DNA from: a virus
IMG/VR virus record: IMGVR_UViG_3300024261_000005
Length of the DNA: 64,000 bases
Strand: one strand, 5' to 3'
Positions 1-52,946 of the stretch are shown here, piece after piece. The position numbers were made by a program, and so were the translations under genes. The notes under the pieces were generated by a model. It searched no databases. It had not been told where the DNA came from and was given only the letters and a program-made list of their open reading frames with translations. How positions within the stretch are numbered: the stretch's first letter is position 1; every line of letters starts with the position of its first letter.

Positions 1-13
1 TAGGAGAGAGAAA

Positions 14-418
14 ATGGCCGTTGTATATCCAGGATTAGTAAATATAGACGCTTCTACAATTACGGTAACCACCGTGAATGTTTATGACGACAATCAAAGA
101 ACCCATACATACGATTTAAGTGATCAGTTTCCAGACTGGAATCCCGAACCAGATGGTAACAGCCTAACAGGCGACGCCCTCATCGCTGCGCAGCAACCTC
201 TGAGTACAATAACCCTGCCTGCATCAGCAAGAGTCAATACTATAATGATTATATTAGACGGAATGACTTTATCTCCCCAATTGAATCCAAATGGCGCTGG
301 CGACTATAAAATTGCTACTAGTAAAATAATCGATTTACTCTGGGACGACGCAGAGCTTCCGAGACGACATAGTAGTACGGACACTCCTGTACTTTTAGCT
401 CGCTATACACTAGCTTAA
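14..418 (+). CDS. Hypothetical protein, probably virion/tail associated
   Basis: 134-aa beta-rich ORF with an AGGAG SD at 2-6; lies directly upstream of the fibre genes. Confidence 0.6.
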
Positions 419-431
419 TAAGGATTCCATA

Positions 432-3140
432 ATGGCTACAAGAAGAACTGACTTACGCAAAGGGGCAATTGACAGCTCTGTCATAACCCAGATTACAAAT
501 ACCGTCATAGCACAAGTATCAGGATCAATTGGTGCAACTGGACCTGCTGGTGCAACTGGACCTCAGGGGACCCAAGGTCAAGCTGGGGCACAAGGCTCAC
601 AAGGACCAACAGGCAATGTAGGTCCTGTGGGCCCCACAGGTGACAGTGGAATTCAAGGCTCACAAGGATCGACGGGCAACGATGGCTCTGTTGGGCCTCA
701 AGGCCTCACTGGCGTTCAAGGACCTACAGGCGATGCCGGTGCACAAGGAATCCAAGGCCCCCTGGGGCCTCAAGGTGCCACTGGAGACGATGGCGCTACA
801 GGGCTTCAAGGTATTCAGGGAATAACAGGCAACGACGGTGCTACAGGTCCTCAGGGCGTTCAAGGCGATACAGGGCCTCAAGGTGCTGCTGGAAATGATG
901 GAGCTCAAGGTAATCCAGGTTCCACTGGAGCTACTGGCCCACAGGGCGCCACTGGCGCTGACGGAATCGACGGAGCAACAGGGCCTCAAGGCGACACTGG
1001 CGCAACTGGTCCTACTGGCGCTACGGGTCCACAAGGAGCAACAGGAACTAACGGTTCTAACGGAATCGACGGAGCTCAAGGCCCCACAGGGGCTCAAGGC
1101 GTTGACGGTCCACAAGGGATTCAAGGACCCGTTGGTGCCGATGGTGCAACTGGTGCTGACGGAGCAGTTGGACCCCAAGGGGCGACTGGCAACGATGGTG
1201 CTCAAGGCGTTGCTGGCCCAACAGGCGTTGCTGGCCCAACAGGCGCTGACGGAACCGACGGAGCAAATGGAGTGCAAGGCTCAACGGGTGATACTGGTGC
1301 AACAGGACCGGCAGGCGCAACTGGGTCAACTGGCCCCAGAGGCGACGCATTCGCTATAGACCAAACAGGAGTCTTAATCGAGAGTGCTATTAGTAGTATT
1401 CAGGCTACCTCTTCAATCACTGCACAAAATCCATACTTCTTTGTTATCACTACTGACAGCAGATCTGATAGTAGTACGCCGAGTCCTTTAGCTGGCGATA
1501 TGTCTGGACATCTTGTTGTCTATGATGGGAGTGTTTGGTCTGATTTCGGTCAGTTTACAGGTACAAAAGGTGATACTGGCGATACGGGGACTCAAGGTCC
1601 CCAGGGAGCTCAGGGAGTTGTCGGTGCCACTGGAGCAGCAGGGAGCACAGGCCCTCAAGGTGACGTGGGTTCTACTGGTCCTGCAGGAGCAACTGGACCT
1701 CAAGGAATTCAAGGCGATACAGGTCCTCAAGGTGTTCAAGGTACCGCTGGGATCACAGGCCCTCAAGGAGCTACAGGATCTGCTGGGGCTGCTGGTAGTA
1801 CCGGTCCTCAAGGGGACGCGGGTTCTACTGGACCAACAGGTGCAACAGGCCCACAAGGTGTGCAGGGTGATACAGGACCAACCGGACCGCAAGGCGACAC
1901 TGGAGCTGCTGGACCAACAGGCACTCAAGGCGTCCAGGGTCCCACTGGAGACACGGGCTCAACAGGATCTACTGGGGCCACAGGACTGCAAGGTGATACT
2001 GGGACGACCGGAAGTACCGGATCTCAAGGCCCCACCGGGGCAACAGGCCCTGTAGGAGCAACTGGATCTCAAGGAATTCAAGGGCCTCAAGGCGATGCTG
2101 GAGCTACAGGGTCCGTTGGGGCAACAGGCCCTATAGGAAACACTGGCGTCCAAGGTCCCGCTGGAGACACGGGAACCCAGGGAGTAACAGGGCCTCAAGG
2201 CGACACCGGCGCTACAGGAGCGGCTGGAGCTACAGGACCGACCGGCGCTACAGGAGCGGCTGGTGCCGGTGCAAACAATGCAACTATTGCGACCACTCTT
2301 TCTACCCACAGTGGCTTTATAGCAAGCGTTGGGGATGACCTAGCAGCAGACACCAGCTTCCAAGCGAGCGTCAAAGGTGATACAGGGGCAACTGGACTCC
2401 AAGGGAGTATTGGGGCTACAGGACCGCAAGGAGACCAGGGCCTCACTGGAGTAACAGGAGCTACTGGTCCTGTTGTGATTGCAACAGCAAGCATTCTTGG
2501 TGGTGTTAAGATTAATGGGAATAACCTTTCTATTAATGCTTCTGGAGTCCTATCTTCTGAAGACACAGCGTTACATTCACAAGTTGATCAAATAGAAACA
2601 ACTATAGGCTTAGCTACTGGAGGCACGTTAGGTTCTTGGGCCAATCATGCTAACTACAGTGTAGCAGCAACTGTTAAAGCAGCTATTGAAGGGGTTGATG
2701 AGCAAGTTAGGTTGCAAACAATTAACATAACTTCTCTTAACTCATTAGGAAATCTTCACGAAACTGCTATTGGGATTAGTTCTACAGGTAACTATGAAAG
2801 TAGAAGTGGCACAAACTATATAGATAGCGCAACAGATGTTGTTGGAGAAGCTACTCTACTTGATGCGCAGGTTAAAACCAATGCAGATAATATTGATCTT
2901 TTAGAAATTAGAGGCGGCGGATTGCTTATGGAAACGACGACCGCGGGAATATATCTTCCAGATACAATAATGCTATCAAGTCATGCAGGGCCATTTAGGA
3001 TTGATTTCGCACAAGCAATAGCGAATAGTGGTGCTGCCGATTTGACATTCTATGGAACCAAAGCAAAAACACACGAAGATCGACATTTTACAATAGACAC
3101 CACAACTGGCGACATTACCTTTACAGGTACTACACTTTAA
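432..3140 (+). CDS. Collagen-like tail fibre/whisker protein
   Basis: Two long uninterrupted Gly-X-Y blocks and a short third block, followed by a C-terminal coiled-coil/trimer-like region ([20 protein letters not shown]). Confidence 0.85.
522..1349 (+). repeat. Collagen Gly-X-Y block 1 (92 triplets)
   Basis: Gly at every third residue from GSI to GDA; includes an exact 18-bp tandem duplication at 1205-1240. Confidence 0.95.
1560..2270 (+). repeat. Collagen Gly-X-Y block 2 (79 triplets)
   Basis: Continuous Gly-X-Y from GTK to GAG; Thr and Gln dominate the Y position. Confidence 0.95.
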
Positions 3141-3172
3141 ATTAAAAACTTTATATTGCAGGAGAGATTACC

Positions 3173-6100
3173 ATGGCAAAAATAAAACCTGAAACATCCG
3201 GAGATCATGACCTCGGAGACAGCTCCTTTAAGTGGGGCGCCGTGCACACGGTGCACGTCGAAACAGAAACCTTGACTACCTCTGGGAATCTTGTTGTAGG
3301 CGGTACGCTAACCGTAACCGGATCAAACATTGTTGCTGAAGTGACAACTATAGCAGCAGAAGATCCGCTTATAAGTCTTGCAAAAGACAATACTGGCGAT
3401 GTATTCGATATCGGATTCTATGGAAAAGCTGTTAATGGTTCTTCTGAAACCGATTATCATGGTTTTGTTAGAGCTGCATCTGATGGTAAATTCAAAATCT
3501 TTAAAAATGCGTCTGCCGAACCTACTACAACTGTAGGCTCCCATGAAGTAGCCACGCTTGTGGCTGATCTTGAAGTTCCTAACGGAAGCTCTCTAAAAGT
3601 TCCTCAAGCCAATGGGACTCCAATAGATTACATTACTGCTGTAACTTTAGGTACTGCTCAGGCTAATAAAGTTCTTACTGTAGACAATAGTAAAAATCTC
3701 ACTGGAATTAATAATATCACTGCTTCTGGTACGATCCAAGCTGGTAATGTTTTGATTTCAGGAAGCGCAATTAGCACTTCTGGAGGTGCAGCTCCTTCTT
3801 TTGAAGAAGTTGCTATCACTGGTGGCTCTATTGATGGTACAACTATTGGTGGTACAACTGCAGCTGCTGTTACTGCGACTACTTTAAGTGCAAGTAGTGC
3901 TACTGTTAGCGGTACAACAACTTTGCAAGGAGCAGTTACGCTAGGCAATGCTGCTGCAGACGATATTACCGTAACAGGTAGTCTTGCATCTAGTGTAGTT
4001 CCAAAAGTAGATGGAACTCATGATCTGGGTACTAATGCACTAAGAATGCGCCATGTCTATTCAGACAACATTACAGCAACTACTATCAATGCATTTGCTG
4101 CTGGTGGGGCTGTAAATTTCAATAATCAAGATATGACTAATGTAAAAATTACTAGTGGTAGTATTTCTGGTTCCGACGTTACTGTTGGCGTAGGTAAGAC
4201 TCTCAACGTTTCAGCTGGCACTATTACTTTTGCTGCAGGCCAAGTCTCTAATACTGATTTAGCTACGATTAATACTGCTGGTAAAGTTTCACTTGGTGCT
4301 TTAGATATTGATGGTGCGGATGAAATGGACGCTGCTATCGCTGATGCCGACCTGCTCATTATTGATGATGGTGGCAACGGTATAGAAAAATCTATGTTAG
4401 CATCTCGCATCCCCACTTATGTTATTTCAAAACTAAGCGGTGGAACTGGCGTTGCCCATCTTAATGGTACGTTTAGTATCGGTCAAGCAGTTGCGACTAC
4501 TGATGATGTTACTTTTAGTACTGTCACTGCAACTACTTTTTCTGGTGTAGTAACTAGCATCTCTAATCATACAACTCAAAATCTCACAGAGCATTCTGAC
4601 AACAAGTATTACACTGATGAAAGAGTAGACGATAGAGTTAGTGAGTTACTAAGCGACGGCCAAGCAATTGGTCTTAGTTATGCTGACAATGGAGCTGGAG
4701 CTTTAACAATTGCAGTCGATACTGCTACTGCTTCAACTTTAGGTGTAGCTTCTTTTTCAGGTGACAACTTCCTTGTTTCAAGTGGTGCTGTAACTATCAA
4801 GGATGGCGGTATTGCAAATGCTGAGTTAGCTCAAAGCGCCATGAGTATTGCAGGTCAATCAGTTTCACTTGGCGCTAGTATTACTGCAGCATCTATAGCT
4901 GCTGCTATCGGTGGCGAAGCTATGGAATTAACAGCTGTTACCGATCTTGATAGTCCTCAAAGTAACTTGACAATCTTTAACACTAATAATGCTAGTCGTA
5001 CACTTACGATAGGTGCTGTAAATGGTACTATTGCGATTCCAGGTGATCTTGATCTTACAGGAGATATGAAAGACGATCTCAATCTTGTAGCAACAAAGAA
5101 GTATCAGATTGCTGGTACTGATGTTTTGTCTGCCACTACTCTCGGAAGCGGTGTTGTCGCTTCTAGCCTTACTTCAGTAGGTGCTCTTGCCTCAGGTAGT
5201 ATTGCTTCTGGTTTTGGAACCATCTCTACTGCAAGTAATATCTCTACTACTCAAGTTATTAATTTAGCTACAGACGCAGATATAGACGGCTATTCCGCAG
5301 ACAGTGCAACCGGCAGACTTACTTTAGGCACGAGTAACGATCTAAGCCTTTATCATGGTGGAACTAATTCTTATATTGTCAATAAAGTTGGCGAACTTCG
5401 GCTTGACGCTCCTTTTTCTAGTGAGATTTCACTCTCTATAGCTGGTGCTGAAGAGGCGCATATCGATGCTGACGGTATCGATCTTGCTAGTGGTAATGAC
5501 TACAGAATTAATAATGCGTCTGTACTTTCAGCTACTACTCTCGGTTCAGGTGTAGTTGCTTCAAGCTTGACTACTGTGGGTGCTTTGGATTCAGGTAGTA
5601 TTACTAATGGATTCACGTCCATTGATGTTGGTTCAGGTGCAATCACAACAACTGGAACTCTTACTGGGGGAATCCTGGCGGTTGATGATATTCAGATTAA
5701 CGGATCTAATATTGGGCACACCGATGATATTGACCTGCTTACTGTTGCAAGTGGAACCCTTACTGTTGCAGGGCGTGTAGATTTAACTACACTCGCTATT
5801 GGTAGTACTGATATTACTGCTGACGCAACTGAACTGAATTATGTTGATGGAGTTACAAGTAACATCCAAACACAGCTTGATGCTAAAGCTCCAGCGGCCA
5901 ATCCAATCTTCTCAGGCACCATTACTTTTGGTAACGCAGTGATTAGCGAAGCAGAGCTAGAAATTCTCGACGGTGCGTTAATTTCCACTACCGAACTAAA
6001 TCATCTTAACAATGCTTCTGGCTCTATCCAGACACAGCTTGATGCTAAACAAGGCCTAAACACTCAACTTACTACGCTTTCAACCAGCCTGACAGCAGCT

Positions 6101-6763
6101 GTTGCCACAGAGCTTGTTGCGTTAGCCGATGGGGAGATTGAAGTTCTTGATGGCGCAACTCCTGGTTCAGCAGTTGCAAGTAAAGCTCTTGTGGTCAATG
6201 GTTCTAAAAACATTGGCACTCTCGGTACTGTTACTCTTGGTACTCTTACTGATGGTACTGCTACTTTGACTGGCGGTGCACTAACCAGCTTAACAAAGCT
6301 TACTGTAGACAATTTGCAATTAAACGCCAATGATCTTAAATCTACCTCTGGTGATTTAAATCTAAACTCTGCAAGTGGTGACGTTAAAATAGCAGCTGGA
6401 GTTGATCTTACATTATTGTCTGGGGGTAATATTACTGCTGATGGCAATGTTAGCATTAACGGTCTTTTGGAAACTGATGGAGTTAGACGAAAAACTTTAA
6501 TCAAAACCGATTCTTATACTATTGTTGGTGACGACCATACTATTCTATTCAACGTAGAGTCGGATAGTACTTGCACTTTGGCTACTTCTAACGATTCCGA
6601 CATGGTTTCTAAAGAGTATGTAATCAAAAATGTGGGCTCAAATACTATAACTTTTGCTTCCACCAGTCAGATTGATGGAAGCCCTGCTTCCAACACTACG
6701 CTTACTGCAGGACAAAAAATAAAAGTTATAGGTACAGCAGCATTTGGTTGGCAGTCAATTTAA
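3173..6763 (+). CDS. Long tail fibre / beta-rich receptor-binding protein
   Basis: 1196-aa Gly/Ser/Thr/Ala-rich ORF with AGGAGA SD; internal repeats VLSATTLGSGVVASSLT (x2) and ELNxxxxxxxxIQTQLDAK (x2); DLG...W fibre-type motifs. Confidence 0.8.
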   Translation: MAKIKPETSGDHDLGDSSFKWGAVHTVHVETETLTTSGNLVVGGTLTVTGSNIVAEVTTIAAEDPLISLAKDNTGDVFDIGFYGKAVNGSSETDYHGFVRAASDGKFKIFKNASAEPTTTVGSHEVATLVADLEVPNGSSLKVPQANGTPIDYITAVTLGTAQANKVLTVDNSKNLTGINNITASGTIQAGNVLISGSAISTSGGAAPSFEEVAITGGSIDGTTIGGTTAAAVTATTLSASSATVSGTTTLQGAVTLGNAAADDITVTGSLASSVVPKVDGTHDLGTNALRMRHVYSDNITATTINAFAAGGAVNFNNQDMTNVKITSGSISGSDVTVGVGKTLNVSAGTITFAAGQVSNTDLATINTAGKVSLGALDIDGADEMDAAIADADLLIIDDGGNGIEKSMLASRIPTYVISKLSGGTGVAHLNGTFSIGQAVATTDDVTFSTVTATTFSGVVTSISNHTTQNLTEHSDNKYYTDERVDDRVSELLSDGQAIGLSYADNGAGALTIAVDTATASTLGVASFSGDNFLVSSGAVTIKDGGIANAELAQSAMSIAGQSVSLGASITAASIAAAIGGEAMELTAVTDLDSPQSNLTIFNTNNASRTLTIGAVNGTIAIPGDLDLTGDMKDDLNLVATKKYQIAGTDVLSATTLGSGVVASSLTSVGALASGSIASGFGTISTASNISTTQVINLATDADIDGYSADSATGRLTLGTSNDLSLYHGGTNSYIVNKVGELRLDAPFSSEISLSIAGAEEAHIDADGIDLASGNDYRINNASVLSATTLGSGVVASSLTTVGALDSGSITNGFTSIDVGSGAITTTGTLTGGILAVDDIQINGSNIGHTDDIDLLTVASGTLTVAGRVDLTTLAIGSTDITADATELNYVDGVTSNIQTQLDAKAPAANPIFSGTITFGNAVISEAELEILDGALISTTELNHLNNASGSIQTQLDAKQGLNTQLTTLSTSLTAAVATELVALADGEIEVLDGATPGSAVASKALVVNGSKNIGTLGTVTLGTLTDGTATLTGGALTSLTKLTVDNLQLNANDLKSTSGDLNLNSASGDVKIAAGVDLTLLSGGNITADGNVSINGLLETDGVRRKTLIKTDSYTIVGDDHTILFNVESDSTCTLATSNDSDMVSKEYVIKNVGSNTITFASTSQIDGSPASNTTLTAGQKIKVIGTAAFGWQSI

Positions 6764-6809
6764 TTAAAGTAATCAACACACAGTAATATAAAGTAATCTT
6801 TTAGTTTTG

Positions 6810-6845
6810 AGGGGTAGTTCGCATTGGCGGGCTACCCCTTTTTTT
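6810..6845 (+). terminator. Rho-independent terminator
   Basis: Stem AGGGGTAGTTCGC / GCGGGCTACCCCT with an ATTG loop, followed by a T-tract, just after the fibre gene. Confidence 0.9.
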
Positions 6846-6865
6846 ATATATAAAGGAAAAGAAAA

Positions 6866-7102
6866 ATGTTCGACTCGTTTCAAGAAGCACTAGAAGGTGC
6901 TCTACAGTGGACGAAATGGCACGGCCTAACCATCAAGTCTATAAAGACTTATAGAATAGAGCCACACGAATTCTACTCAACAGAATTCACTACAACAACT
7001 AACAAAAGTTATGTCTGTACTTGGGAGAGCTCTCAAGTAACATTCATTGAAATACCCAACGAAACCTCAAGGAACCTAAATGCGTATAGTCGCAACCTAT
7101 GA
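6866..7102 (+). CDS. Hypothetical protein
   Basis: 78-aa ORF with an AAGGA SD, located after the terminator. Confidence 0.6.
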   Translation: MFDSFQEALEGALQWTKWHGLTIKSIKTYRIEPHEFYSTEFTTTTNKSYVCTWESSQVTFIEIPNETSRNLNAYSRNL

Positions 7103-7307
7103 AAACCCAAAATTCTGTAATCTTGCAGATATTGACAACTATAAAAACAAATTCAATTTCGATGGATTTGAAACCACAACTATTTATGCTTCTAGCTTAG
7201 TAGACCTAAAGCGACAAGTGAACTTAACAAGACTTCAAAGAGCCTCTCAAAGAGGCTCTAGCAGGCCCTTAAAGTTAAGTGATTTAACCATTAGAATAAA
7301 GGATTAA
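7080..7307 (+). CDS. Hypothetical protein
   Basis: 75-aa ORF with an AAGGA SD, overlapping the previous gene. Confidence 0.6.
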   Translation: MRIVATYENPKFCNLADIDNYKNKFNFDGFETTTIYASSLVDLKRQVNLTRLQRASQRGSSRPLKLSDLTIRIKD

Positions 7308-7310
7308 CTT

Positions 7311-7424
7311 ATGAAAATAATTTCAAAGGAGTACCTTGGAGAAGAAGAAGTTTATGATATTGGTGTAGCTTCTTTGGAAGGCAATCATAACTTTGTTCTC
7401 GAGAATGGAATTATAGCTTCTAAT
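7311..7424 (+). mobile_element. Split intein C-fragment (DnaE-type IntC)
   Basis: MKIISKEYLGEEEVYDIGV..GNHNFVLENGIIASN|CFN shows block F (VYDI..HNF), block G with terminal Asn, and a +1 Cys; it closely resembles the Npu/Ssp DnaE IntC. Confidence 0.93.
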
Positions 7425-8573
7425 TGCTTTAATAAAGCACATAGCGTTAGCTACTCCATACTCACTTATGTAAGCGCGTATATGAAGACGCATTACCCTG
7501 TGGAGTTTTTTACTGCGTTGATGTCCACAAGAAGTAAAACTTTACAGCCTAAATCCTGGGCAATTAAAGCTCCTGAATACATTCAAGAAGCTAAAAAGTT
7601 TGGTGTGCATGTGTATCCGCCATTTGTTAATCAAAGCGGATACGAATTCACAATCAGTGATGGCGAGATATACTTTGGGCTCAATGCAATCAGAGACGTC
7701 GGCAAGACTGCTGCTCGTATGATTATTAAAGCTCGACAAAAAACACCCTTTAAATCTGTTAAAGATTTTATTTCAAGAATTAACCTTCAAAAAGTAAATA
7801 CAAAAACGTTCGATGCTCTTGTTAAGGCTGGTGCCTTCGATAAGCTAGGTTACGATAGAGCAGGACTTCTAGAGAAGTGCCCTTTAATTTACGCATACGT
7901 AAGAGATCTTGAAGACTACAAGCAGCGCCAGTTAGACGTTGTGGAGCGAGACAATTACAACAACCAAGTTGTTCCGCTTATAGAGCGTAGAAACTTTCTT
8001 AGAAAAGAACTTAAGAAAATACAGAACAGAATTGATAAAGATAAAGTAAAAGAGAATGACATAGACAATTTTCATCTCATGTCTGAGGAACTAGAACCAT
8101 TAGAAGCTGAGAACTTAAAGAAAAAAGTCTCTCTAAAGCCGAAAGAGAAGCCTGAGTTCCCCGAACTTCTTAAGTCAGATTCTATTGAGCTAGGTATGGA
8201 AGAGATATTAAATCAAGCAAATTACATTGGTTGTTACATTGGTGGACACCCACTAGATTTGATATCAATTAAAAAAGACGACCTGGATTCATTAGAGGAA
8301 GGTGACTACGCTAACGTCGCTGGTGTCATCCTTTCTATGAAAGAGATTACAACAAGAAAAAACAAACAGATGGCTTTCGTTGAAATTAATGATAAAACTA
8401 GTTCAGCTGAAATTGTTATTTTTCCACAGCTATGGAAAAAAGTTTCAAGTCTAGGCTTAAAAGAAACTACAATCGTTACCTGCAAGGTAAAGGTTGAGCA
8501 AGTTGAGCCAGATATAAAGCTTATTTTAAATTCAATTAATATTTATAAGGACTTTTATGAGATGGACTCCTGA
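7311..8573 (+). CDS. dnaE: DNA polymerase III alpha subunit, C-terminal half, with N-terminal split-intein C fragment
   Basis: Begins with a 38-aa IntC, then CFNKAHSVSY...YMKTHYPVEFFTALM, an HhH region (GLNAIRDVG...PFKSVKDFISR...LVKAGAFD), GCYIGGHPL, and an OB fold (VAGVI...MAFVEIND...IVIFP). Confidence 0.95.
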   Translation: MKIISKEYLGEEEVYDIGVASLEGNHNFVLENGIIASNCFNKAHSVSYSILTYVSAYMKTHYPVEFFTALMSTRSKTLQPKSWAIKAPEYIQEAKKFGVHVYPPFVNQSGYEFTISDGEIYFGLNAIRDVGKTAARMIIKARQKTPFKSVKDFISRINLQKVNTKTFDALVKAGAFDKLGYDRAGLLEKCPLIYAYVRDLEDYKQRQLDVVERDNYNNQVVPLIERRNFLRKELKKIQNRIDKDKVKENDIDNFHLMSEELEPLEAENLKKKVSLKPKEKPEFPELLKSDSIELGMEEILNQANYIGCYIGGHPLDLISIKKDDLDSLEEGDYANVAGVILSMKEITTRKNKQMAFVEINDKTSSAEIVIFPQLWKKVSSLGLKETTIVTCKVKVEQVEPDIKLILNSINIYKDFYEMDS

Positions 8574-9621
8574 AGAAGAATACCTATTGCAACTATTTAC
8601 TGGTGAAAAAACCTTTAAAGAAATTGCTGAATTAATCTGCCTAAAACATGAGCAAGGAACTCCTGGCTTTCCAGTGAAGCGAACCTTCGACGCAGTAAGA
8701 ACTAAAATTTCTCGAAAAGATAATTCAAAAGTATCTCAAACTTACGACAATGCATGGAAGAATATTATTGACACCGCTAAGGAGTTCAGGTCTAAAAGCT
8801 CTAAGTTAGAGCTAGGGCTTAGCACTTCAAAAGCCAGAAAAATAATATCTTTCAGTGATCTGCACATACCATTCTTCCTCTGGGAAGATATGAAAGCAGC
8901 ACTTGATAAGCATAAAGACGCTGATATTGTAGTTCTGAATGGGGACATCCTTGATGCCTACATGTTCAGCACCTTCAGTAAGACTAAAAGTATTGCTGCA
9001 ATAAAAGAATACATTGCTGCATTCGACTTAGTACACTATCTGTCGAATAACTTTCCCACGGTGGTTATGGTCTCTGGGAACCATGATTATAGAACTACTA
9101 GAGCGATAAAACAAAGTGGACTATCAAGCGATGTTATGAAAGTCTACCGTCCAGACCTTTTGTCACGCATTGCTGCAGGAGAAAAATTAAACACTTTTGG
9201 TGAATTAGAAACTATCGTAGATTTCAAGAACGTTCATTATCAAAAATACGACTCGTGGTACGTCCGAATTGGAAAAACTATCTTCTGTCATCCAAGTGGA
9301 TTCGGAAGCAAATACCCAGGCGCAACCGTAGTTAAACTTCACGATCACTTTTCACAACGTATGGATTCTAGCGATTTTGATTCTATCGTTGTGGGTCACA
9401 CACATAAGGTGTACAAGGGTGTTATCTCTGGAAAGCTCCTTATCGAACAAGGCGCAATGGCGCATAAACTCCCCTATCAATTCAGAGCAGATCTAAGATT
9501 TAAAAATGCAATGAATGGCTACGCCATCGTTTATCAAGATTCAGATGGCAACACAAACTTTAACGACTCCACTCCTATTTATTTAGGATCACATTTACCC
9601 ACAAAAAAAGGCGTAATCTAA
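8557..9621 (+). CDS. Calcineurin-like metallophosphoesterase with N-terminal HTH
   Basis: SDLH, NGD, GNHD and GHTH motifs; the N-terminus RWTPEEE...EIA...RTFDAVR is Myb/GcrA-like. Confidence 0.85.
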   Translation: MRWTPEEEYLLQLFTGEKTFKEIAELICLKHEQGTPGFPVKRTFDAVRTKISRKDNSKVSQTYDNAWKNIIDTAKEFRSKSSKLELGLSTSKARKIISFSDLHIPFFLWEDMKAALDKHKDADIVVLNGDILDAYMFSTFSKTKSIAAIKEYIAAFDLVHYLSNNFPTVVMVSGNHDYRTTRAIKQSGLSSDVMKVYRPDLLSRIAAGEKLNTFGELETIVDFKNVHYQKYDSWYVRIGKTIFCHPSGFGSKYPGATVVKLHDHFSQRMDSSDFDSIVVGHTHKVYKGVISGKLLIEQGAMAHKLPYQFRADLRFKNAMNGYAIVYQDSDGNTNFNDSTPIYLGSHLPTKKGVI

Positions 9622-9623
9622 AC

Positions 9624-9935
9624 ATGTCAAACGACGAACTAGACCCTAACGTTCAAGAACAACCAGTACCCTTCGGATTCTTAATCCCTCTCTCTCAAGC
9701 TCTTGAAGCTAGAATCGACTATAACTTCAATTCCATGATTCAATTATCTCTACTCGTGGAGTATCTCTATCAGGAACTTGAAGGCAAAGACATTGAAATT
9801 GAAATGGGAGATAAATTTCAAGCTTTCCAAGATGAACGAGTAAAGGAAATAAAAACTCAGTTCGAACTTCAAAAGACTGAAGCCGAGGCCGAAGCTGAGA
9901 TAGCTGAATCAAAAATAAACTTAAAGGATAATTAA
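9624..9935 (+). CDS. Hypothetical acidic coiled-coil protein
   Basis: 103-aa ORF tightly packed between its neighbours. Confidence 0.7.
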   Translation: MSNDELDPNVQEQPVPFGFLIPLSQALEARIDYNFNSMIQLSLLVEYLYQELEGKDIEIEMGDKFQAFQDERVKEIKTQFELQKTEAEAEAEIAESKINLKDN

Positions 9936-10985
9936 ATGACTTGGTCCTTTATCAAGCATGTCTCTCAGTACTTAGAACGCCCTAAGTTAGGGGAGCAAAA
10001 AGCTCCCACCTTGTGGCCTAGCTCCGCAACAGCAGTAGTAGACGGGGCTCCCGTAGGGAAATGCCGAAGGCAGGCTTTCTTTAGATTCGCTAAAGATAAT
10101 TATTATTTTGATAAGAAATACGATCACCTAAAGCCTCTCGTTGACCTTGTTAACGAATATAAGACGCCTACAGACAAATACATGCGTTGGATTTGGATCC
10201 AAGGTGAATTGTATGAAGAGTATTGTATCAATATGGCGAAAGAGTCAGGGATCTATATTGGCTCTCAAGTTAGTATATATGTCCCTGGCTATAATATTTC
10301 CGGCAAGATCGACCTAATTGTAGTTGATCCAGAAACAACCAATCTTCACATTGTTGAAGTTAAATCGGTTTACGGATTTAATGCTAATAGTGTTCTTGGC
10401 ACTGATTCTCAACATAAGAAGGGTCTTATTGGCACCCCCAGAGAATCACATTTAATGCAATTAGGAATCTATCAATGGTGGTACGGCAACAGTAATGAGG
10501 AATTTGGTGCTGCGTTACTTACATATGGTGCTCGTGACACTGGTCGTTTCGCTGAATACATGATTACTGTTGAAAAAGGCGACGACGACCTTGATTATAT
10601 TTTCTACCAAGGTCACACTCCAATCACTACCAAGAAGGTTAATTCTAACATCACAATTCAAAGCATCTTAGAAAACTACAAGCTGCTTTCTGATTGTCTT
10701 GAAAGTGAAAAGGGCGAAATACCCGCAGCTGATTATGAGCTGCTCTTCACTCAAGAGAAGATAGCTCAACTGCATGAACAAGGGCTGCTTAGCAAAACCG
10801 ATGCGACTCAATACGAGAAGCGAAAGAAGCAGCTGGAGGAAGGCAAAAACCGAGTCGTTAAGCCCGTTCAAAAAGGCGACTGGCAGTGCCGCTTCTGTGA
10901 TTATAAGTATATCTGCCACGAAGAAGACGGCACTCAAAAAGAGTTCTCGCTACAAGATTTACAAGGCGAGAACGGCGAATCGTAA
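9936..10985 (+). CDS. Cas4/AddB-like PD-(D/E)XK exonuclease with probable Fe-S cluster
   Basis: PSS..C near the N-terminus, SGKIDL...VEVKS catalytic motifs, QLGIY, and C-terminal CRFCDYKYIC (1+3 Cys). Confidence 0.85.
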   Translation: MTWSFIKHVSQYLERPKLGEQKAPTLWPSSATAVVDGAPVGKCRRQAFFRFAKDNYYFDKKYDHLKPLVDLVNEYKTPTDKYMRWIWIQGELYEEYCINMAKESGIYIGSQVSIYVPGYNISGKIDLIVVDPETTNLHIVEVKSVYGFNANSVLGTDSQHKKGLIGTPRESHLMQLGIYQWWYGNSNEEFGAALLTYGARDTGRFAEYMITVEKGDDDLDYIFYQGHTPITTKKVNSNITIQSILENYKLLSDCLESEKGEIPAADYELLFTQEKIAQLHEQGLLSKTDATQYEKRKKQLEEGKNRVVKPVQKGDWQCRFCDYKYICHEEDGTQKEFSLQDLQGENGES

Positions 10986-11145
10986 CGGGGGTCCGCAATC
11001 ATAACAAAGAGTTATGTGTTGTGAGCTTCCTTATTGAACAAATTAGTATTAGAAAAATGTAAATTTTACAGCTATACCTCAAAACGCTTTTAGAAAAGCT
11101 ATACCCAGCTACGCAATAAGTAGCCTCCTCTTGAAAAGGAAATAA
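10986..11145 (+). promoter_or_regulatory. Structured intergenic region upstream of the primase-helicase
   Basis: Several inverted repeats, a 9-bp direct repeat AGCTATACC (11070, 11097), and an AAGGA SD before the ATG at 11146. Confidence 0.45.
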
Positions 11146-13641
11146 ATGTATATTACTGACACAGATGAAGTTATCGCACTATTAAGGTCGAAGCTTCCTG
11201 AGTACTTATTAAAAAAAATGTCTGCAGATACTGATTTAAATAAAAAGTTCCATTGCTTTGCTCACAATGATACGGGCAGGCCCAATATGAGCCTGAACCC
11301 TAGGACTAACAATGAAACTGTAAAATGTTTTTCATGTGAATTCTCTGGTGATATATTCACCTGTGCAGAACACTTCGATCAGCTACCTTTAAGTGGCCCT
11401 GAATGGATCACCCTGACGATCCCCACACTTTGCGATACCCTAGACATACCTTATTCTCCTGGCGTCCTCTCAGAGGAAGATAGAGAACGTATTAAGTTAT
11501 TCAAGCTAGCTCAAGAAATCTCTGATGTATTAGCAGGGCTTAACCCAAAAAATAACGAGTACATGGTCGAGCGCAATTGGATTCAAAGTCTTATGCCTGC
11601 AGGAAGCATAGATAAAGATCATCTAGTATCGCTTCTTGTTGCAAAGGGGTGGGACTCCAGTTACATCTCGAGCACCAATCTAATTAGTACTCGATGGGTC
11701 GACTACTTCGCTGAAAGCAAAATAACCTTTGCGATAAAGGATCACTGCAAAAGAACTGTTGGGTTTATTTGCAGGAACCAGAACTTCGAAGAAGACAACA
11801 TCCCAAAATACACAAACAGTCCTGAGTCAGCCATTTACAAGAAGACTAAGGCTTTAATGGGCATCGACGTAGCTTATCGTGACGCCAAGAAGTATGGTCT
11901 TTACGTTGTCGAAGGTCCTGGAGAGCTCATGCAGCTCTACAGACTTGGAATTAAAAATGCTGTTTCAGTTTGCGGCACAGCGTTTACAGAGACACACTTG
12001 CTCTATTTAAAACAAATCGGAATAAGAAAACTTTTCTTAAATTTCGACTGGGATCAAGCTGGACATGCAGCTACACAAAGAGTGTTAGAGAATATATTAA
12101 AGACCACATCTGGTGTCAGTACATATATTGTTATGCCTCCTCAAAATTCTGAGGTTAACGATACGGATGAATTTTTAAAAGATTCCGATTCTCCAGAAGA
12201 CTATCTCAACTTAAAGAAGATGTCTGCATTTGAGTGGCAACTGAACTCCTTCTCTACAGATCATACTCCTGATGTGATTTGTCAGAAGATGGTACCCATT
12301 ATCGCTACGGAAGAAACTGAAGTAAAAAGGGAGCTACTTATTAAAGAATTAGCTTCCTTCACTACAGTTTCAACATCCGCTATTCTTGCAGATGTGAATG
12401 CAATACGTACAAATAAGTTCTCCCAGAAATTAGAGAAAAGTAAAACTGCAGCAGAAGCATATATGCGGGCAGTAGAACAGGACCCTAATAATATTAGGGC
12501 CCACATGGCTACGCATGAACAAATGCTTGAACTGATTGAAAAGGAGTTCAAAACAGACTCAATTGGAATCAATTATCAAATAAATCGATTTGACGCAATC
12601 CAGGAATTAAGAGCTAATGCTTCTACTGATGCTTCTACAGCTGGATTCAAAATGAATTATTTTGACATTTTTGCCGATAGTATGAATGGCGGTATGTCTT
12701 GGTCTTCAGGAGCGCTAATGTATGTTGGTGGCAGGGCTAACTCAGGCAAGACAGCTACATGCTTGATGATTGGTACTGATGTTGCACTTTCAGACGACAA
12801 CACTACTGTGATAATTCACAGCACTGACGATAGCTATGAGCAAATAGAGCCCCGGATCAAAACAAACATTTATAGAATGCTATATCCAGATGGACCCGCA
12901 CTTACTATTGGGATGGTTGTTCAACCAAAATTTACGTTAAAAGACTATCCTCCTGAATTTACGCATGCATTCAACAAAGCAAATGAATCTTTCAGAGCTT
13001 TAATTGAATCAGAGCGCCTAGTTATAATCGACAGCGAAGATGGAGCGACCTTAAGTACTCTGGAGAGGAACCTTCGCTACTATCGCAATCGTCACCCTGA
13101 TCGCAAGATACTCATGATTTGTGATAACACACACAACTATATGGACTTCATGAATTTGGAGCAGTCCAGTAGGATGACATCCATTTCTAATCAACAGAAG
13201 AATCTAACTATCAAATATCACGCTTGTATGATAGCTACAGCAGAATACAGAAAGAATATGCCGATGGATCATTCTAAGCTTAAGCTGCCTGTTGATGATG
13301 ATTTGGCAGACGCTAGAGCTTTGATGTACAGACCAAATGCTATCTTTCATGTATACAATGACATGCACGATAGAAAAGAGCATTGTGAGATCTTCTGGAA
13401 AGATGACGAAGGTAATATGTATCCAAGACTTTTACTTCATTTCACGAAGAATAAAATCTCTGGATTTAAAGACAAGTTGATCCTTGATTTGGATCCGAAA
13501 ACAGTCTCTCTTTCTGTATGCGACACTAAAGATTCACTCTTAGAAGCTGAAAACTTCCGGGACCTGAAAGGTTCAGGGTATGTAACTAGTAATGGTAAAA
13601 AAGTTCTAGTTGTAAATGCAGAGGAATATTCGGATGCATAA
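11146..13641 (+). CDS. DnaG-type primase fused to DnaB-type (SF4) helicase
   Basis: CHC2 zinc finger (CFAH...CFSC), KYTNSPES, Toprim (VVEG, FDWDQAG), Walker A GGRANSGKT, Walker B ICDNTH. Confidence 0.9.
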   Translation: MYITDTDEVIALLRSKLPEYLLKKMSADTDLNKKFHCFAHNDTGRPNMSLNPRTNNETVKCFSCEFSGDIFTCAEHFDQLPLSGPEWITLTIPTLCDTLDIPYSPGVLSEEDRERIKLFKLAQEISDVLAGLNPKNNEYMVERNWIQSLMPAGSIDKDHLVSLLVAKGWDSSYISSTNLISTRWVDYFAESKITFAIKDHCKRTVGFICRNQNFEEDNIPKYTNSPESAIYKKTKALMGIDVAYRDAKKYGLYVVEGPGELMQLYRLGIKNAVSVCGTAFTETHLLYLKQIGIRKLFLNFDWDQAGHAATQRVLENILKTTSGVSTYIVMPPQNSEVNDTDEFLKDSDSPEDYLNLKKMSAFEWQLNSFSTDHTPDVICQKMVPIIATEETEVKRELLIKELASFTTVSTSAILADVNAIRTNKFSQKLEKSKTAAEAYMRAVEQDPNNIRAHMATHEQMLELIEKEFKTDSIGINYQINRFDAIQELRANASTDASTAGFKMNYFDIFADSMNGGMSWSSGALMYVGGRANSGKTATCLMIGTDVALSDDNTTVIIHSTDDSYEQIEPRIKTNIYRMLYPDGPALTIGMVVQPKFTLKDYPPEFTHAFNKANESFRALIESERLVIIDSEDGATLSTLERNLRYYRNRHPDRKILMICDNTHNYMDFMNLEQSSRMTSISNQQKNLTIKYHACMIATAEYRKNMPMDHSKLKLPVDDDLADARALMYRPNAIFHVYNDMHDRKEHCEIFWKDDEGNMYPRLLLHFTKNKISGFKDKLILDLDPKTVSLSVCDTKDSLLEAENFRDLKGSGYVTSNGKKVLVVNAEEYSDA

Positions 13642-13951
13642 TTATCTCTCGAAATCACTGCTTGACGATAATGACCTCAAGATTGACGAGTGTGTAATCT
13701 TGGGTAGTAAATCGTTCCACATGAAGCTTCAGCCCGAAGAGGGGACCATCGGTCTCTATGTTGTTTCTGGTTGCGCAACCGTATATGAATTTGATATTAA
13801 TTTAGTTATAATAGATACTTCGATTGTAGCGCCTGGGCAACTTTTAAGGCTGAATGCAGCAAAAACAAAAACAATTCTCATCGAATCGCTTGGCTCTTTT
13901 GATGAAGATGTGAAATTCTTAAAAATTGAAAGGAAACTTCATGCCAGATAA
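13634..13951 (+). CDS. Hypothetical beta-rich (possibly cupin-like) protein
   Basis: Start moved to the ATG at 13634 because a GAGGA SD lies 8 nt upstream. Confidence 0.6.
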   Translation: MHNYLSKSLLDDNDLKIDECVILGSKSFHMKLQPEEGTIGLYVVSGCATVYEFDINLVIIDTSIVAPGQLLRLNAAKTKTILIESLGSFDEDVKFLKIERKLHAR

Positions 13952-14234
13952 TAAGACTATGGGAATCTACGTCCACTCAAATAAAACGTTCTATTACCTT
14001 GAAGGCGGAAGCAACTATATAGGAAACTCTTTAGACCGTGTTCGAAAAGCGCTTATACAAAGGGACTTGATCGTCCCCGAATTCAACACGAATTATGCTA
14101 GATCACCTTACGACATTGTGTCTTATAGTGACGCACACAAAAACGACTATTTGCTCCAGCCAATATTCTTATCTCAGCATATTAAACAGCTGTATGATAA
14201 AAACAAAGAAACCCTGAAAGGTAAATTCAAATGA
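13941..14234 (+). CDS. Hypothetical protein
   Basis: The ATG at 13941 follows an AAGGA SD; overlaps both neighbours. Confidence 0.65.
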   Translation: MPDNKTMGIYVHSNKTFYYLEGGSNYIGNSLDRVRKALIQRDLIVPEFNTNYARSPYDIVSYSDAHKNDYLLQPIFLSQHIKQLYDKNKETLKGKFK

Positions 14235-14557
14235 ACTTAACTGCAATTCAAGATAGTCTTAAGGACTTACGTATTGTTCTAGGTCTCGTCTCTGCACTGT
14301 TTGGGCTTGGTTCAATCTGCGGATACCAGCTTTCCCCAAAGCCAATAGCCAAGTCAATAATGTGCAAGAATGAAGACAATCAAATTAAGATCCTAAATAA
14401 ACAATTAGCTGATCTCCGGACCGAGAGGTTGGACGACGTTACTCGAGTACAAAGCGAATGTATGACAACTCAAGATAAAATCTGTGCGGATAAAATCATG
14501 AAGTACAGAACAGCTTGTCTCTCGCTAAAGTGTGAAGTCTGCAAGGCATCAAGATGA
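14231..14557 (+). CDS. Membrane-anchored Cys-rich coiled-coil protein (i-spanin-like)
   Basis: N-terminal TM segment IVLGLVSALFGLGSICGY, then a coiled coil with several Cys. Confidence 0.5.
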   Translation: MNLTAIQDSLKDLRIVLGLVSALFGLGSICGYQLSPKPIAKSIMCKNEDNQIKILNKQLADLRTERLDDVTRVQSECMTTQDKICADKIMKYRTACLSLKCEVCKASR

Positions 14558-15009
14558 AAAAAATATTTATAGCTTTTTTAATAAGTTCACTTGTGGTGCA
14601 GAGCGCTTCTGCGCAAGAGTTGAGTCCCCTCGACTTTAAGCTGAAACTAGGACAGCACGAATTTTTATTCCCTTATCTATTTGCTCAAGATAAATCCCCT
14701 ACTGAGGGGTATTTACTTTCTGTCGCAGACATAGCCTTGCTTAAGATTGAATTAGATTCTTTTGATGAGATTTTAAATGAGAACTTAAATCTCTTAAAAA
14801 AAGAATGCAAAGCCAGCGTAATTAGATGCCAGGAAGACTCAAACGAAAGATGGGACAAAGTTAATATTGAAAACGAAACCTTAAAGGAAAAGCTCAAGCT
14901 AAAGACTCAGCTTTACAAAGATCAAAAGAATAAAACACTTATTTATTCTTTCTCTTCGGCGCTAGTTGCTGGACTTGCTTCTTTCGTAATCATTAAGGCT
15001 TTTTATTAA
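14554..15009 (+). CDS. Exported coiled-coil protein with C-terminal membrane anchor (spanin-like partner)
   Basis: Sec signal MKKIFIAFLISSLVVQSASA, a coiled coil, and a C-terminal hydrophobic helix; ATGA overlap with the previous gene. Confidence 0.5.
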   Translation: MKKIFIAFLISSLVVQSASAQELSPLDFKLKLGQHEFLFPYLFAQDKSPTEGYLLSVADIALLKIELDSFDEILNENLNLLKKECKASVIRCQEDSNERWDKVNIENETLKEKLKLKTQLYKDQKNKTLIYSFSSALVAGLASFVIIKAFY

Positions 15010-15031
15010 GACTATCTATACAGAACCCCAG

Positions 15032-15760
15032 GTGAAGACTTATCTAAGTTGCTCTGCTCTTTTTCATCTTGGTGGATCCGTATATAGTTACGACCCTTCT
15101 CAAGAAGTTCTCTATAAAACTTTAAAAGATTTTTATTTAAAGATATTAAAGTTTGAAGTGAATGACTTTGATAAAGACTTAATAAAAATAATTAAAAAGA
15201 ATTTAAAAGAATTCTGTCCAGACATAACATCACTTGATGACTTACAATACCTTATGAATTGGACGTTATCAGCTGTTAATGAGTTCTTTCAAATCTTTCC
15301 TTTAAAGAAGTATACACCTCTTATAGTTAGTCACGAGCCAATAGTAGCGCATGGCTCCCTGTTAGTATCGTTAACTTTTGATCTGCTTTTAGTACAAAAC
15401 AATAAGTTATCCTTTATTCATGCAGTATGCTTTTATCCAAAGCTAGATTCTCATAATAAGAATTGCGATTTTTTTAATTCAGTTAAGATTGATTTTTTGA
15501 AAAGAGTTTATACTAAAAAGGGCTGCGCTAAACCTTCAGTCAGCTTACATAATCTTTCCATTAAATCTGCATCATTTCGCAATAAAAACACGAAGAACTA
15601 CCCTTATACAAAAGAAACAGTCACAAAGATTACAAAGACAAATAGCGCTCAAGCAAAGAGCTCTTTAACTTACTTTGACCAAAACAAAGAAATAAAAATA
15701 ATTAAACCTTTTTGCGACGCATACAGCTGTCCCAAACGGAAGGAGTGCCAAGATGCCTGA
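15032..15760 (+). CDS. Hypothetical protein, possibly a degenerate PD-(D/E)XK/Cas4-like fold
   Basis: GTG start; C-terminal C-x4-C-x5-C and a TFDLLL strand, but no ExK motif. Confidence 0.55.
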   Translation: MKTYLSCSALFHLGGSVYSYDPSQEVLYKTLKDFYLKILKFEVNDFDKDLIKIIKKNLKEFCPDITSLDDLQYLMNWTLSAVNEFFQIFPLKKYTPLIVSHEPIVAHGSLLVSLTFDLLLVQNNKLSFIHAVCFYPKLDSHNKNCDFFNSVKIDFLKRVYTKKGCAKPSVSLHNLSIKSASFRNKNTKNYPYTKETVTKITKTNSAQAKSSLTYFDQNKEIKIIKPFCDAYSCPKRKECQDA

Positions 15761-16055
15761 ATACGGTGATTTTAAAATAGCCTCAAGGGCAAGAATAAAC
15801 TTGCCAGTAAATTTATTTGGCGGAGGCCCCTGGGTTCACATGGCAACAGCTACACGTTCATTGTCTGAATACGTTGCTGTTTTACATGAGCCCACAGGAA
15901 AGATATACCTAGAGCAAATAACTGCTACAGGAAGGTTTATTCATATTGAAGATAATGCTCTCTGGATAGACTTATTAAACTTTCTTGTAAGCGAAGGCGT
16001 TTTGGGGTTTGATAAGGACCAGGAGATAATCATAGGAAACGAATTTGACAGCTAG
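15753..16055 (+). CDS. Hypothetical protein
   Basis: 100-aa ORF with an AAGGAG SD. Confidence 0.75.
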   Translation: MPEYGDFKIASRARINLPVNLFGGGPWVHMATATRSLSEYVAVLHEPTGKIYLEQITATGRFIHIEDNALWIDLLNFLVSEGVLGFDKDQEIIIGNEFDS

Positions 16056-16470
16056 AACCTCCTGGAAGAATCAATTCTATCATTATGAATCTGCATCAAA
16101 ATTTCATAATTCAATTAGACAAATATTTATTACGGATATGTTTTTTAAACAGCTACAATGCTTTCAGGAAGTCCCTGTTAAAGATCTTGTGCCAGACTAC
16201 ACCTCACCTTATGATGCTGTAGACTGGTACATTGATGAGTATAATATCATAATAGAATTACACGGGATACAGCACTACAAGATCCAATCCTTCGGATCAA
16301 AAGACTCTTACTGGAACCAAAAGAAAAACTTTCACAATATAAAATATCGTGATAACAGGAAGAAGACAGCGCTTCTAAACGCAGGATATTCTTTTCTAGA
16401 ACTATCTTATAAGGAATGTGCTAAAGTTACTCCTGAGTATTTGAAACATAAAATTTTTTATGAAAGTTAG
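16045..16470 (+). CDS. Vsr/DUF559-like PD-(D/E)XK endonuclease
   Basis: QEVP...VDWYI...IIELHGIQHY...RDNRKK...GYSFLEL pattern. Confidence 0.75.
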   Translation: MTARTSWKNQFYHYESASKFHNSIRQIFITDMFFKQLQCFQEVPVKDLVPDYTSPYDAVDWYIDEYNIIIELHGIQHYKIQSFGSKDSYWNQKKNFHNIKYRDNRKKTALLNAGYSFLELSYKECAKVTPEYLKHKIFYES

Positions 16471-16473
16471 TTT

Positions 16474-17106
16474 ATGAACGAATTACAACAGAAACTTCTT
16501 GCTGAGTTATTGGTTGATGACAATTTTGAATCCTGGAATTGTTTCGAGCCCAAGTATTTTGGTGCAGACAGTAGGACGTTGCCTTTCTTTAGTAATGTAG
16601 ATAAGCATACAGCGCTGCTGCTTATAAGCCAGCTAAGGCATCTCGAAGAGATGGAGCCCGAAAAGCCAATAACGATTATGCTTAATACACAAGGAGGTTC
16701 TCTTACAGACGGGCTAGCTATACATGACACAATTGTGCAGCTAGCTTGCCCTGTAATAGTTCATGCTTTAGGACTGTGTGCATCCGCCGGACTTCTGATC
16801 TTAAGCGCAGCAGACTATAGGGTTGCGTCGCCGAATACCACTTTTTATTATCATCAACCCGTAGTAGAAGACTTTATGATTAACAGCATGCAAAACATGA
16901 ACGAGTTAAACGACTATTACAGTAACTGCAAAGAAGTTACAGATGATATAATGAAGGCTAGAGCCAAGATAAAAAAGTCAACTTGGACAAAAAACTTTGA
17001 AGGAAAAACAAATTATTATTTTGATTCAGAGACGGCTTTATCATTCAACTTGATTGATAGCGTCACTGAAAGCAACAAACTCGATTACGAGATAGAAAAG
17101 AGTTAA
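16474..17106 (+). CDS. clpP: ClpP-family protease subunit
   Basis: LNTQGGS, GLCASAG (catalytic Ser), HQP (catalytic His), ALSFNLID. Confidence 0.88.
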   Translation: MNELQQKLLAELLVDDNFESWNCFEPKYFGADSRTLPFFSNVDKHTALLLISQLRHLEEMEPEKPITIMLNTQGGSLTDGLAIHDTIVQLACPVIVHALGLCASAGLLILSAADYRVASPNTTFYYHQPVVEDFMINSMQNMNELNDYYSNCKEVTDDIMKARAKIKKSTWTKNFEGKTNYYFDSETALSFNLIDSVTESNKLDYEIEKS

Positions 17107-17110
17107 GCCT

Positions 17111-17458
17111 ATGGCTTCTAGAGGAAGAGGTGCCAGAATTAAAGGTGCTACATTTGAGCGACAGCTAGCTAAATATTTTACTGACAATACAAGATTTGAA
17201 GCAAAGCGTGGCATCGGCCAAAGCCGGATGGGAGGCTCTGAGGTCAGCGATGTTGACATGCCAATCATCCACGTCGAAGCAAAGAGGCACAAGCGCTGCC
17301 ATATAAAATCAGCTCTGAAGCAGGCTATCGCAGATGCAAATATTAATGGAAAGATCCCTGTCGCCATAACGAAAGACGACAGAGAAGAGATATTGTGCAC
17401 TATGCTTATTGATGATTGGATACGGTTCTTCAATGCTTTTGTAGAGACTACTGAGTGA
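17111..17458 (+). CDS. Holliday junction resolvase (Hjc-like PD-(D/E)XK)
   Basis: KGATFERQLAK...SDV...HVEAKR, typical of phage/archaeal Hjc-type resolvases. Confidence 0.8.
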   Translation: MASRGRGARIKGATFERQLAKYFTDNTRFEAKRGIGQSRMGGSEVSDVDMPIIHVEAKRHKRCHIKSALKQAIADANINGKIPVAITKDDREEILCTMLIDDWIRFFNAFVETTE

Positions 17459-18132
17459 AAAACTCACTGTACATAACTGGCAACTTTTCATCTTTTGTTG
17501 AGAGTTATATTGATGCTAAAAACAACAAAGCATCAAATGCCATAATGTACTGTCTAAGCTCCCTAGGAGACTGCTTCTCAACCTGGGAGCAAGAGTTCAA
17601 CTCAAACGATTATCATAAAAACATAAATCTAGTTACGTTATATAAATTAATTGCCGCAGACAACAAGCCTGTAGCAACACTAGACTGGAAGATCAACACA
17701 TATAAAAGCTATTTAAACTTTTATAGTTTATCATTTAAAGATCATTTAATTGAATGCTTCTTAAAGCATATAGAAAAAGAAACGGTTGTATACTCAAATT
17801 ATAATAAAGAATATAAATTATTATACTTTCTCGCTAGAGAGATTAAATACAGCCTTTTTAAAATCATCAGACAGGCCTGTCAATTAAGTAAGCGCGACTA
17901 CACAACAAACAAAACATACACACTAACTAAACCTTCCTTCTACAAAGAGTCCTCTATAAATCTAGATTTATACTTTCTTTTTTTAAAAAATAGATTATTA
18001 TATTCAATAATTCTATCCATTATTTATGAGAACATTTCCTGGAAGGAAATCAAACAAAAATACGAGCTTTCAAACGCTCAGTTCAAAAAAATTAAAAACG
18101 AGGCACATCAATGGATAAGCAAAACGCTATAA
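17455..18132 (+). CDS. Hypothetical protein with C-terminal HTH (sigma-factor-like?)
   Basis: Helical, AT-rich ORF ending in SWKEIKQKYELSNAQFKKIKNEA, which resembles sigma region 4. Confidence 0.45.
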   Translation: MKNSLYITGNFSSFVESYIDAKNNKASNAIMYCLSSLGDCFSTWEQEFNSNDYHKNINLVTLYKLIAADNKPVATLDWKINTYKSYLNFYSLSFKDHLIECFLKHIEKETVVYSNYNKEYKLLYFLAREIKYSLFKIIRQACQLSKRDYTTNKTYTLTKPSFYKESSINLDLYFLFLKNRLLYSIILSIIYENISWKEIKQKYELSNAQFKKIKNEAHQWISKTL

Positions 18133-52945: not shown

Positions 52946-52946
52946 A

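Follow-up and report, generated by a model that had tools for sequence, protein, structure and literature searches.

The open reading frame (ORF) at positions 7311 to 8573 of the window (the whole stretch of DNA analysed, 64,000 nucleotides of IMG/VR virus record IMGVR_UViG_3300024261_000005) is the last piece of a marine phage DNA polymerase, the C-terminal part of the DNA polymerase III alpha subunit (DnaE). Its gene, dnaE-c, opens with the C-terminal half of a split intein (IntC). The features in this part of the window, numbered from its first base, are as follows.

14 to 418, forward strand: ORF of 134 aa, the second gene after dnaE-n (the gene for the preceding part of DnaE)
432 to 3140, forward strand: collagen-repeat tail-fibre protein of 902 aa (Pfam Collagen, E 8.5e-82; PHROG tail-fibre, about E 1e-122)
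3173 to 6763, forward strand: fibre-like protein of 1196 aa, with no family match in Pfam or PHROG
6809 to 6840, forward strand: terminator-like hairpin after the fibre genes, 14 pairs followed by a T run
6866 to 7307, forward strand: two small ORFs of 78 aa (6866-7102) and 75 aa (7080-7307), with no Pfam or PHROG match
7311 to 8573, forward strand: dnaE-c ORF, 420 aa
7311 to 7424, forward strand: IntC of 38 aa (MKIISKEY...GIIASN), from a split intein of DnaE type, placed by alignment to the Npu DnaE IntC
7425 to 8573, forward strand: DnaE C-extein from the +1 Cys (CFNKAHS...), with helix-hairpin-helix (HhH) and OB-fold domains, assigned by Pfam and by identity to the protein P0160
8557 to 9621, forward strand: metallophosphoesterase overlapping the end of dnaE-c, a neighbour kept in every relative

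The protein begins MKIISKEYLGEEEVYDIGVASLEGNHNFVLENGIIASN/CFNKAHS (slashes mark splice junctions), and its ATG at 7311 is preceded by a Shine-Dalgarno-like AAGGA motif at a distance of 7 nt. Residues 2 to 38 of the IntC align with the Npu DnaE IntC chains 4lx3_B (E 1.2e-7) and 4qfq_B (E about 1e-7), and the extein matches the Pfam families HHH_6 (E 1.8e-28) and tRNA_anti-codon OB (E 8.9e-7). Over 421 aa the whole protein is 32% identical to P0160, a cyanobacterial protein to which its source gives the name "trans-splicing DnaE-C", and the ASN/CFNK splice junction is identical in the two. An initial annotation, made from the letters of the window, had described a gene with its own start and Shine-Dalgarno motif, a terminator and two small ORFs upstream of it, and a 38-aa IntC ending in ASN joined to the CFNKAH of DnaE, with the split site and Ser-Asn ending of the Npu DnaE intein. 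All of these were recovered, the last two by ORF reading, Pfam and PDB-chain alignment, which place a homologous IntC at Y/CFNK. An "ASLEG loop insertion" relative to the Npu IntC had also been described; an insertion does follow DIGV, but its real size is 3 residues, and in the IntC alignment it is restricted to the sub-clade of the window. Downstream, the metallophosphoesterase marks the point at which the replication module resumes, since this neighbour is kept in every relative.

Among the larger ORFs scanned within the 64-kb window, giant ones included, none contained the PHP or PF07733 part of DnaE, and for these ORFs the initial statement that the window has no N-terminal half was literally true. 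An 831-aa ORF (11146-13641) was considered as dnaE-n and rejected, as it is a primase-helicase. Two giant ORFs (3287 and 2480 aa) occupy 43082-60389 on the reverse strand, and in the 2480-aa ORF residues 1749-1814 match a ComEA-like HhH domain (PF12836, E 2e-9).

Two window proteins were looked up exactly among metagenomic contigs, and 24 and 20 contigs were read (contigs without a separate listing were grouped as similar places). A 160,424-bp ENA metagenomic contig proved 100% identical to window positions 1-10418 at locus L016 and, at locus L021 of the same contig, to positions 1-18573 (18.6 kb). Window base 1 falls on L016 base 9988, and the contig continues leftwards with, in order and on one strand, RecA, DnaE piece 1, three small ORFs, DnaE piece 2, and an ORF of 122 aa. 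The DnaE features upstream of the window are as follows.

L016 5865 to 7193, strand of dnaE-c: DnaE piece 1, 442 aa
L016 7954 to 9576 (window -2033 to -411), strand of dnaE-c: DnaE piece 2 (dnaE-n with the N-terminal intein half, IntN), 540 aa
L016 9283 to 9573 (window -704 to -414), strand of dnaE-c: IntN, 97 aa, at the C terminus of piece 2

Piece 2 ends ...LVGFADY/CLHGSTKIK...NLILKTQ-stop. Its residues 443-537 match the Npu DnaE IntN (4lx3_A, E 6.8e-16; 4qfq_A, E 2.9e-15), and its IntN is 36% identical to that of a Phormidium DnaE-N. Piece 2 has its stop codon at window -411, 7,721 bp before the dnaE-c ATG on the same strand; the window lacks the N-half because it starts 412 bp past that codon. 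A dnaE-n ending in Y/C-IntN, which the initial annotation proposed to seek beyond the window, is thus present in L016. The "orphan" status of the C-half, with a distant partner, is an artefact of the window edge, and what stands is a phage-encoded, naturally split dnaE with both halves in one phage genome. An attractive reading, that of an orphan half that hijacks a host protein, is thereby corrected; it arose solely from where the window starts. Gene order was equal in further contigs from several samples (ENA, JGI, and Logan assemblies), and no near match to the window was found in the deposited phage collection.

The polymerase upstream of dnaE-c is itself divided. Piece 1, which comprises the PHP domain and the N-terminal portion of the palm, corresponds in alignment to residues 5-463 of Taq DnaE; it ends ...FERFLNEGRG, after which comes a 21-aa tail that is conserved. 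The alignment of piece 2 begins at Taq DnaE 459 (SPPDIDIDHD), after a conserved 94-aa N-terminal extension, and the break between the two falls just before the catalytic PDIDID motif. PF07733 was divided between two ORFs upstream of dnaE-c in four IMG/VR relatives (DnaE-C 61-84% identical), and the three-piece layout was kept in G001 to G004, the more distant L027 and L029, and the window's own genome. Pieces 1 and 2 are separated by three small ORFs in L016 and by a single reverse-strand ORF in L027 and L029; in L031 the two pieces abut, stop and start sharing a base position.

In the alignments, this first break showed no conserved nucleophile, no conserved His, and no Asn-Cys/Ser/Thr junction. 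The N-terminal extension of piece 2 gave no profile match to inteins, and neither gap had an Rfam match to a group I or group II intron. A dead intein acting as a clasp at the first break was considered and rejected, as the extension is helical, with neither HINT-like all-beta remnants nor intein motifs; AlphaFold2 predicted it as helical over residues 3-53 (pLDDT 75-88), within a model of piece 2 that was poor overall (mean pLDDT 58, 6-row alignment). Searches found no sequence homology that accounts for the extension: its profile matched DnaE from SPPDIDID onward only, and in the ESM Atlas it matched only short DnaE-fragment clusters. Residues ~67-95 of piece 2, NSILLYITRLTDEFDFLKARSNTIDG before SPPDIDID, resemble the canonical GSLIAYALGITEVDP...FERFLN segment of piece 1. 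When hhalign was used to test for palm duplication, it aligned only 12 columns (E 0.12, not significant), and some phmmer and tblastn alignments start at residue 70; a partial duplication at the first break (L016:7954-8235) is possible on this likeness.

A modelled complex of piece 1 with piece 2 reached an ipSAE of 0.91 (best of 3 controls, 0.00), a mark that 58 of 80 solved complexes attained, as did 2 of 110 mismatched pairs. Runs agreed in at least 93% of contacts, with partner pLDDT of at least 85, and the modelled interface included the piece 1 tail (420-440) and the piece 2 N-terminal extension (27-74 and 90-105). Solved DnaE structures are single chains with the same fold, so the score may reflect model memory, and the model is better read as showing likeness than binding. 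The complete relative G001 (161,781 bp, with direct terminal repeats) has the same three DnaE pieces and gave no match to PolA or PolB, so the three-piece DnaE is the only replicase recognisable there.

In the window genome, six genes (ORFs of 122, 134, 902, 1196, 78, and 75 aa) and the hairpin lie between the intein halves. The collagen-repeat and fibre-like genes (432-6763) sit within the replication module. The 902-aa fibre protein is 35-44% identical to those of its relatives, against 70-94% for the flanking replication genes (G001 and G002); the 1196-aa protein has partial matches to relatives only, at 42-70% identity, and the 75-aa ORF is kept in G002 at 67% identity. By sequence, the fibre genes look like a hypervariable host-range cassette. 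The genes of the gap are the fastest diverging of the region, which suggests that insertions can be tolerated at a split-intein junction. Across the relatives, the distance from dnaE-n to dnaE-c was as follows.

L030: gap of 812 bp with a single intervening gene (endonuclease, 3317 to 4135)
L027: gap of about 2.5 kb
Window genome, G001, and G002: gap of 7.7-8.2 kb (G004 similar by position)
G003: gap of about 13.5 kb
L031: gap exceeding 10 kb, no dnaE-c found in the flank

What follows downstream in L031, instead of dnaE-c, is a block of structural genes on the reverse strand. None of the six gap genes of the window genome had a family match to a homing endonuclease in Pfam or PHROGs. In L030, the gene between dnaE-n and dnaE-c is a free-standing helix-turn-helix (HTH) and LAGLIDADG endonuclease (PF14528 LAGLIDADG_3, E 1.9e-10), and the IntC is without the 3-aa insertion. 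The initial annotation had set this locus apart from split inteins of phages in which the halves flank a homing endonuclease; the distinction holds for the window gap, which has none, and fails for L030, which has exactly that layout. The fractured-gene layout of L030 suggests that the fibre cassette may have replaced or joined an ancestral homing endonuclease.

Separate genes carry the two intein halves, and the split falls between blocks B and F, the canonical point. IntN closes with a stop after NLILKTQ, IntC opens at its own ATG with MKIISKEY, and these termini match the cyanobacterial ones. The insertion site reads GFADY/C...N/CFNKAHS in the phage and FAEY/C...N/CFNKSHS in cyanobacteria; the Npu/Ssp-type allele site of DnaE, between FA(D/E)Y and CFNK(A/S)HS, is occupied here. 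In an IntN alignment of 8 phage and 4 cyanobacterial sequences, Cys1, the block A Leu and Thr, and the block B Thr and His (T-x-x-H) were invariant. In an IntC alignment of 6 sequences and 1 cyanobacterial sequence, the block F VYDIG (Asp), HNF (His), the terminal Ala-Ser-Asn, and the +1 Cys-Phe-Asn were invariant. The phage IntN sequences are merely 40-50% identical to that of the window genome, and invariance of the splicing residues despite this divergence is what would be expected of a splicing intein rather than a docking tag.

We consider it very probable that dnaE-c is the third piece of a three-gene DnaE, the only replicative DNA polymerase recognisable in the phage, that its product trans-splices with the phage's own piece 2, and that the gap between them comes from a fractured gene. 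DnaE would then be made from three genes on one strand of a phage genome of ~160 kb. After translation, IntN on piece 2 and IntC on piece 3 most likely associate, as their sequences predict, and by analogy with the Ssp and Npu DnaE inteins they would excise themselves, leaving pieces 2 and 3 linked through a peptide bond. Piece 1 most likely joins non-covalently, and its 21-aa tail and the 94-aa helical extension of piece 2 may help. The 7.7-kb arrangement probably goes back to a fractured gene whose halves had a free-standing homing endonuclease between them. Counting against this reading, a strong terminator-like hairpin and fibre genes, which are usually late genes, separate dnaE-n from dnaE-c. 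That the intein halves splice no longer and instead hold piece 2 to piece 3 non-covalently is improbable: docking alone needs none of the splicing residues, and every one of them is invariant across relatives whose inteins are 40-50% identical.

The initial annotation had also offered, as its more speculative option, that an orphan IntC-DnaE-C trans-splices onto the DnaE-N of a (cyanobacterial) host to give a chimeric polymerase. The insertion site and intein family are indeed shared with cyanobacterial dnaE, but the same genome encodes the cognate IntN 7.7 kb upstream, which makes such a hijack unnecessary, and the complete relative G001 carries exactly one IntN and one IntC. Net charges are also opposite to those of the cyanobacterial pair (phage IntN +3 and IntC -5; cyanobacterial IntN -9 to -13 and IntC 0). 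Electrostatic steering operates in DnaE split inteins, and the reversed pattern should disfavour pairing with a cyanobacterial partner. The phage extein is no nearer to cyanobacterial DnaE than to that of other phyla; at about 30% identity to DnaE from many phyla, it is not specifically cyanobacterial. A scan of prokaryote species genomes returned no close bacterial match to the extein, and hence nothing that would point to a prophage or a host. Of the 80 best matches kept, those checked that had an IntC-bearing dnaE-c were cyanobacterial; full-length-looking hits in Saccharibacteria and others were rejected, being without the IntC motif. Taken with the cognate IntN, these points leave splicing onto a host protein very improbable.

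Misassembly of a contiguous intein-containing dnaE, broken or rearranged in the process, has the metagenomic origin of the sequence in its favour and nothing further, and is as good as excluded, since independently assembled contigs (ENA, JGI, and Logan) from several samples share the gene order, diverged relatives (50-84% protein identity) keep it, and the start or stop codon that each half has for itself falls precisely at the canonical split point.

The proposed trans-splicing of phage pieces 2 and 3 has its closest parallel in the cyanobacterial split DnaE intein (Ssp PCC6803 and Npu; PDB 4lx3, 4qfq, 4kl5, and 1zde), which interrupts the same protein at the same insertion point and is split at the same position, into an IntN of about 100 aa and an IntC of about 36 aa. 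The phage IntN is 33-38% identical to these, IntC blocks F and G are identical, and all catalytic residues are present. Unlike the cyanobacterial systems, the intein described here is encoded by a phage and not on a cyanobacterial chromosome; its halves are 7.7 kb apart on one strand with fibre genes between them; its IntC is 3 aa longer, its IntN is 97 aa, and its net charge pattern is reversed; and its extein, about 30% identical only, belongs to a polymerase with an additional upstream break that has no intein. Given its reversed charges and 3-aa IntC insertion, the phage pair may reasonably be regarded as a candidate for protein ligation orthogonal to Npu DnaE; tools of this kind already exist in large number.

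Three fractured DnaE loci were described in ocean metagenomes and environmental phage-like DNA, with split-intein integration points that differ from the cyanobacterial point (Dassa et al. 2009, PMC2677866). As in those fractured genes, a replication gene is broken here at a split intein and its halves lie nearby in the same orientation (PMC2677866): the two halves, each with an intein half, are 7,721 bp apart on the same strand of phage-like DNA, in a window that also encodes baseplate J, tail fibres, a primase-helicase, and ClpP. L030 has the full fractured-gene layout (PMC2677866), with a free-standing endonuclease between the halves, at the cyanobacterial insertion site. The window phage differs from the fractured DnaE loci in its use of the cyanobacterial insertion point, and from fractured genes in its 7.7-kb gap of fibre-like and small genes with no recognisable endonuclease (PMC2677866). 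Genes split by inserted DNA without an intein include nrdA of phage Aeh1 and gp43 of Aeromonas phage (cited in PMC2677866). The break between piece 1 and piece 2 is like these in having no intein motifs, small inserted ORFs, and presumably non-covalent reassembly; unlike them, it has no recognisable endonuclease between the pieces, a conserved 94-aa helical extension on piece 2, and a 21-aa tail on piece 1. The locus is thus a phage fractured DnaE whose last junction is a cyanobacterial-type split intein with fibre cargo, and which has an extra, intein-free break. A limited literature search found no paper describing this allele in phages, which does not prove absence.

An exhaustive HMMER search with the IntN placed nearest to it phage-type sequences (GFADY/CL...) and DnaE-N proteins with FAEY/CLSY... 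(33-35% identity), the latter named by their sources as from Phormidium, Laspinema, Oscillatoria, Stigonema, and Okeania. In a quick IntN tree, the cyanobacteria formed one group (support 41) inside unresolved, longer-branched phage sequences, and the direction of intein transfer cannot be claimed from so poorly resolved a tree. In Laspinema olomoucense, the DnaE-N and DnaE-C accessions are two apart (MCT7975320/MCT7975322 and MCT7980841/MCT7980843), and the longest contig listed for MCT7980841 and for MCT7980843 measures 49,982 bp in both cases; the dnaE halves may thus be near neighbours, not distant, in some cyanobacteria.

This split intein has long been regarded as a cyanobacterial hallmark. 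In phages, the cyanobacterial-type DnaE split intein showed greater sequence diversity than in the cyanobacterial proteins sampled. A broader proposal, which we put forward tentatively and think rather unlikely, is that the intein is native to a diverse clade of aquatic phages, in which it occurs both in a fractured gene that bears a free-standing LAGLIDADG endonuclease and at a wide gap where host-range (fibre) genes are swapped, and that a phage locus of this kind, not a break in the cyanobacteria's own gene, could be the source of split dnaE in cyanobacteria. With inteins at the same site in phages, and the endonuclease layout in at least one relative, the origin of the split in cyanobacterial dnaE becomes a question that phylogeny can test.
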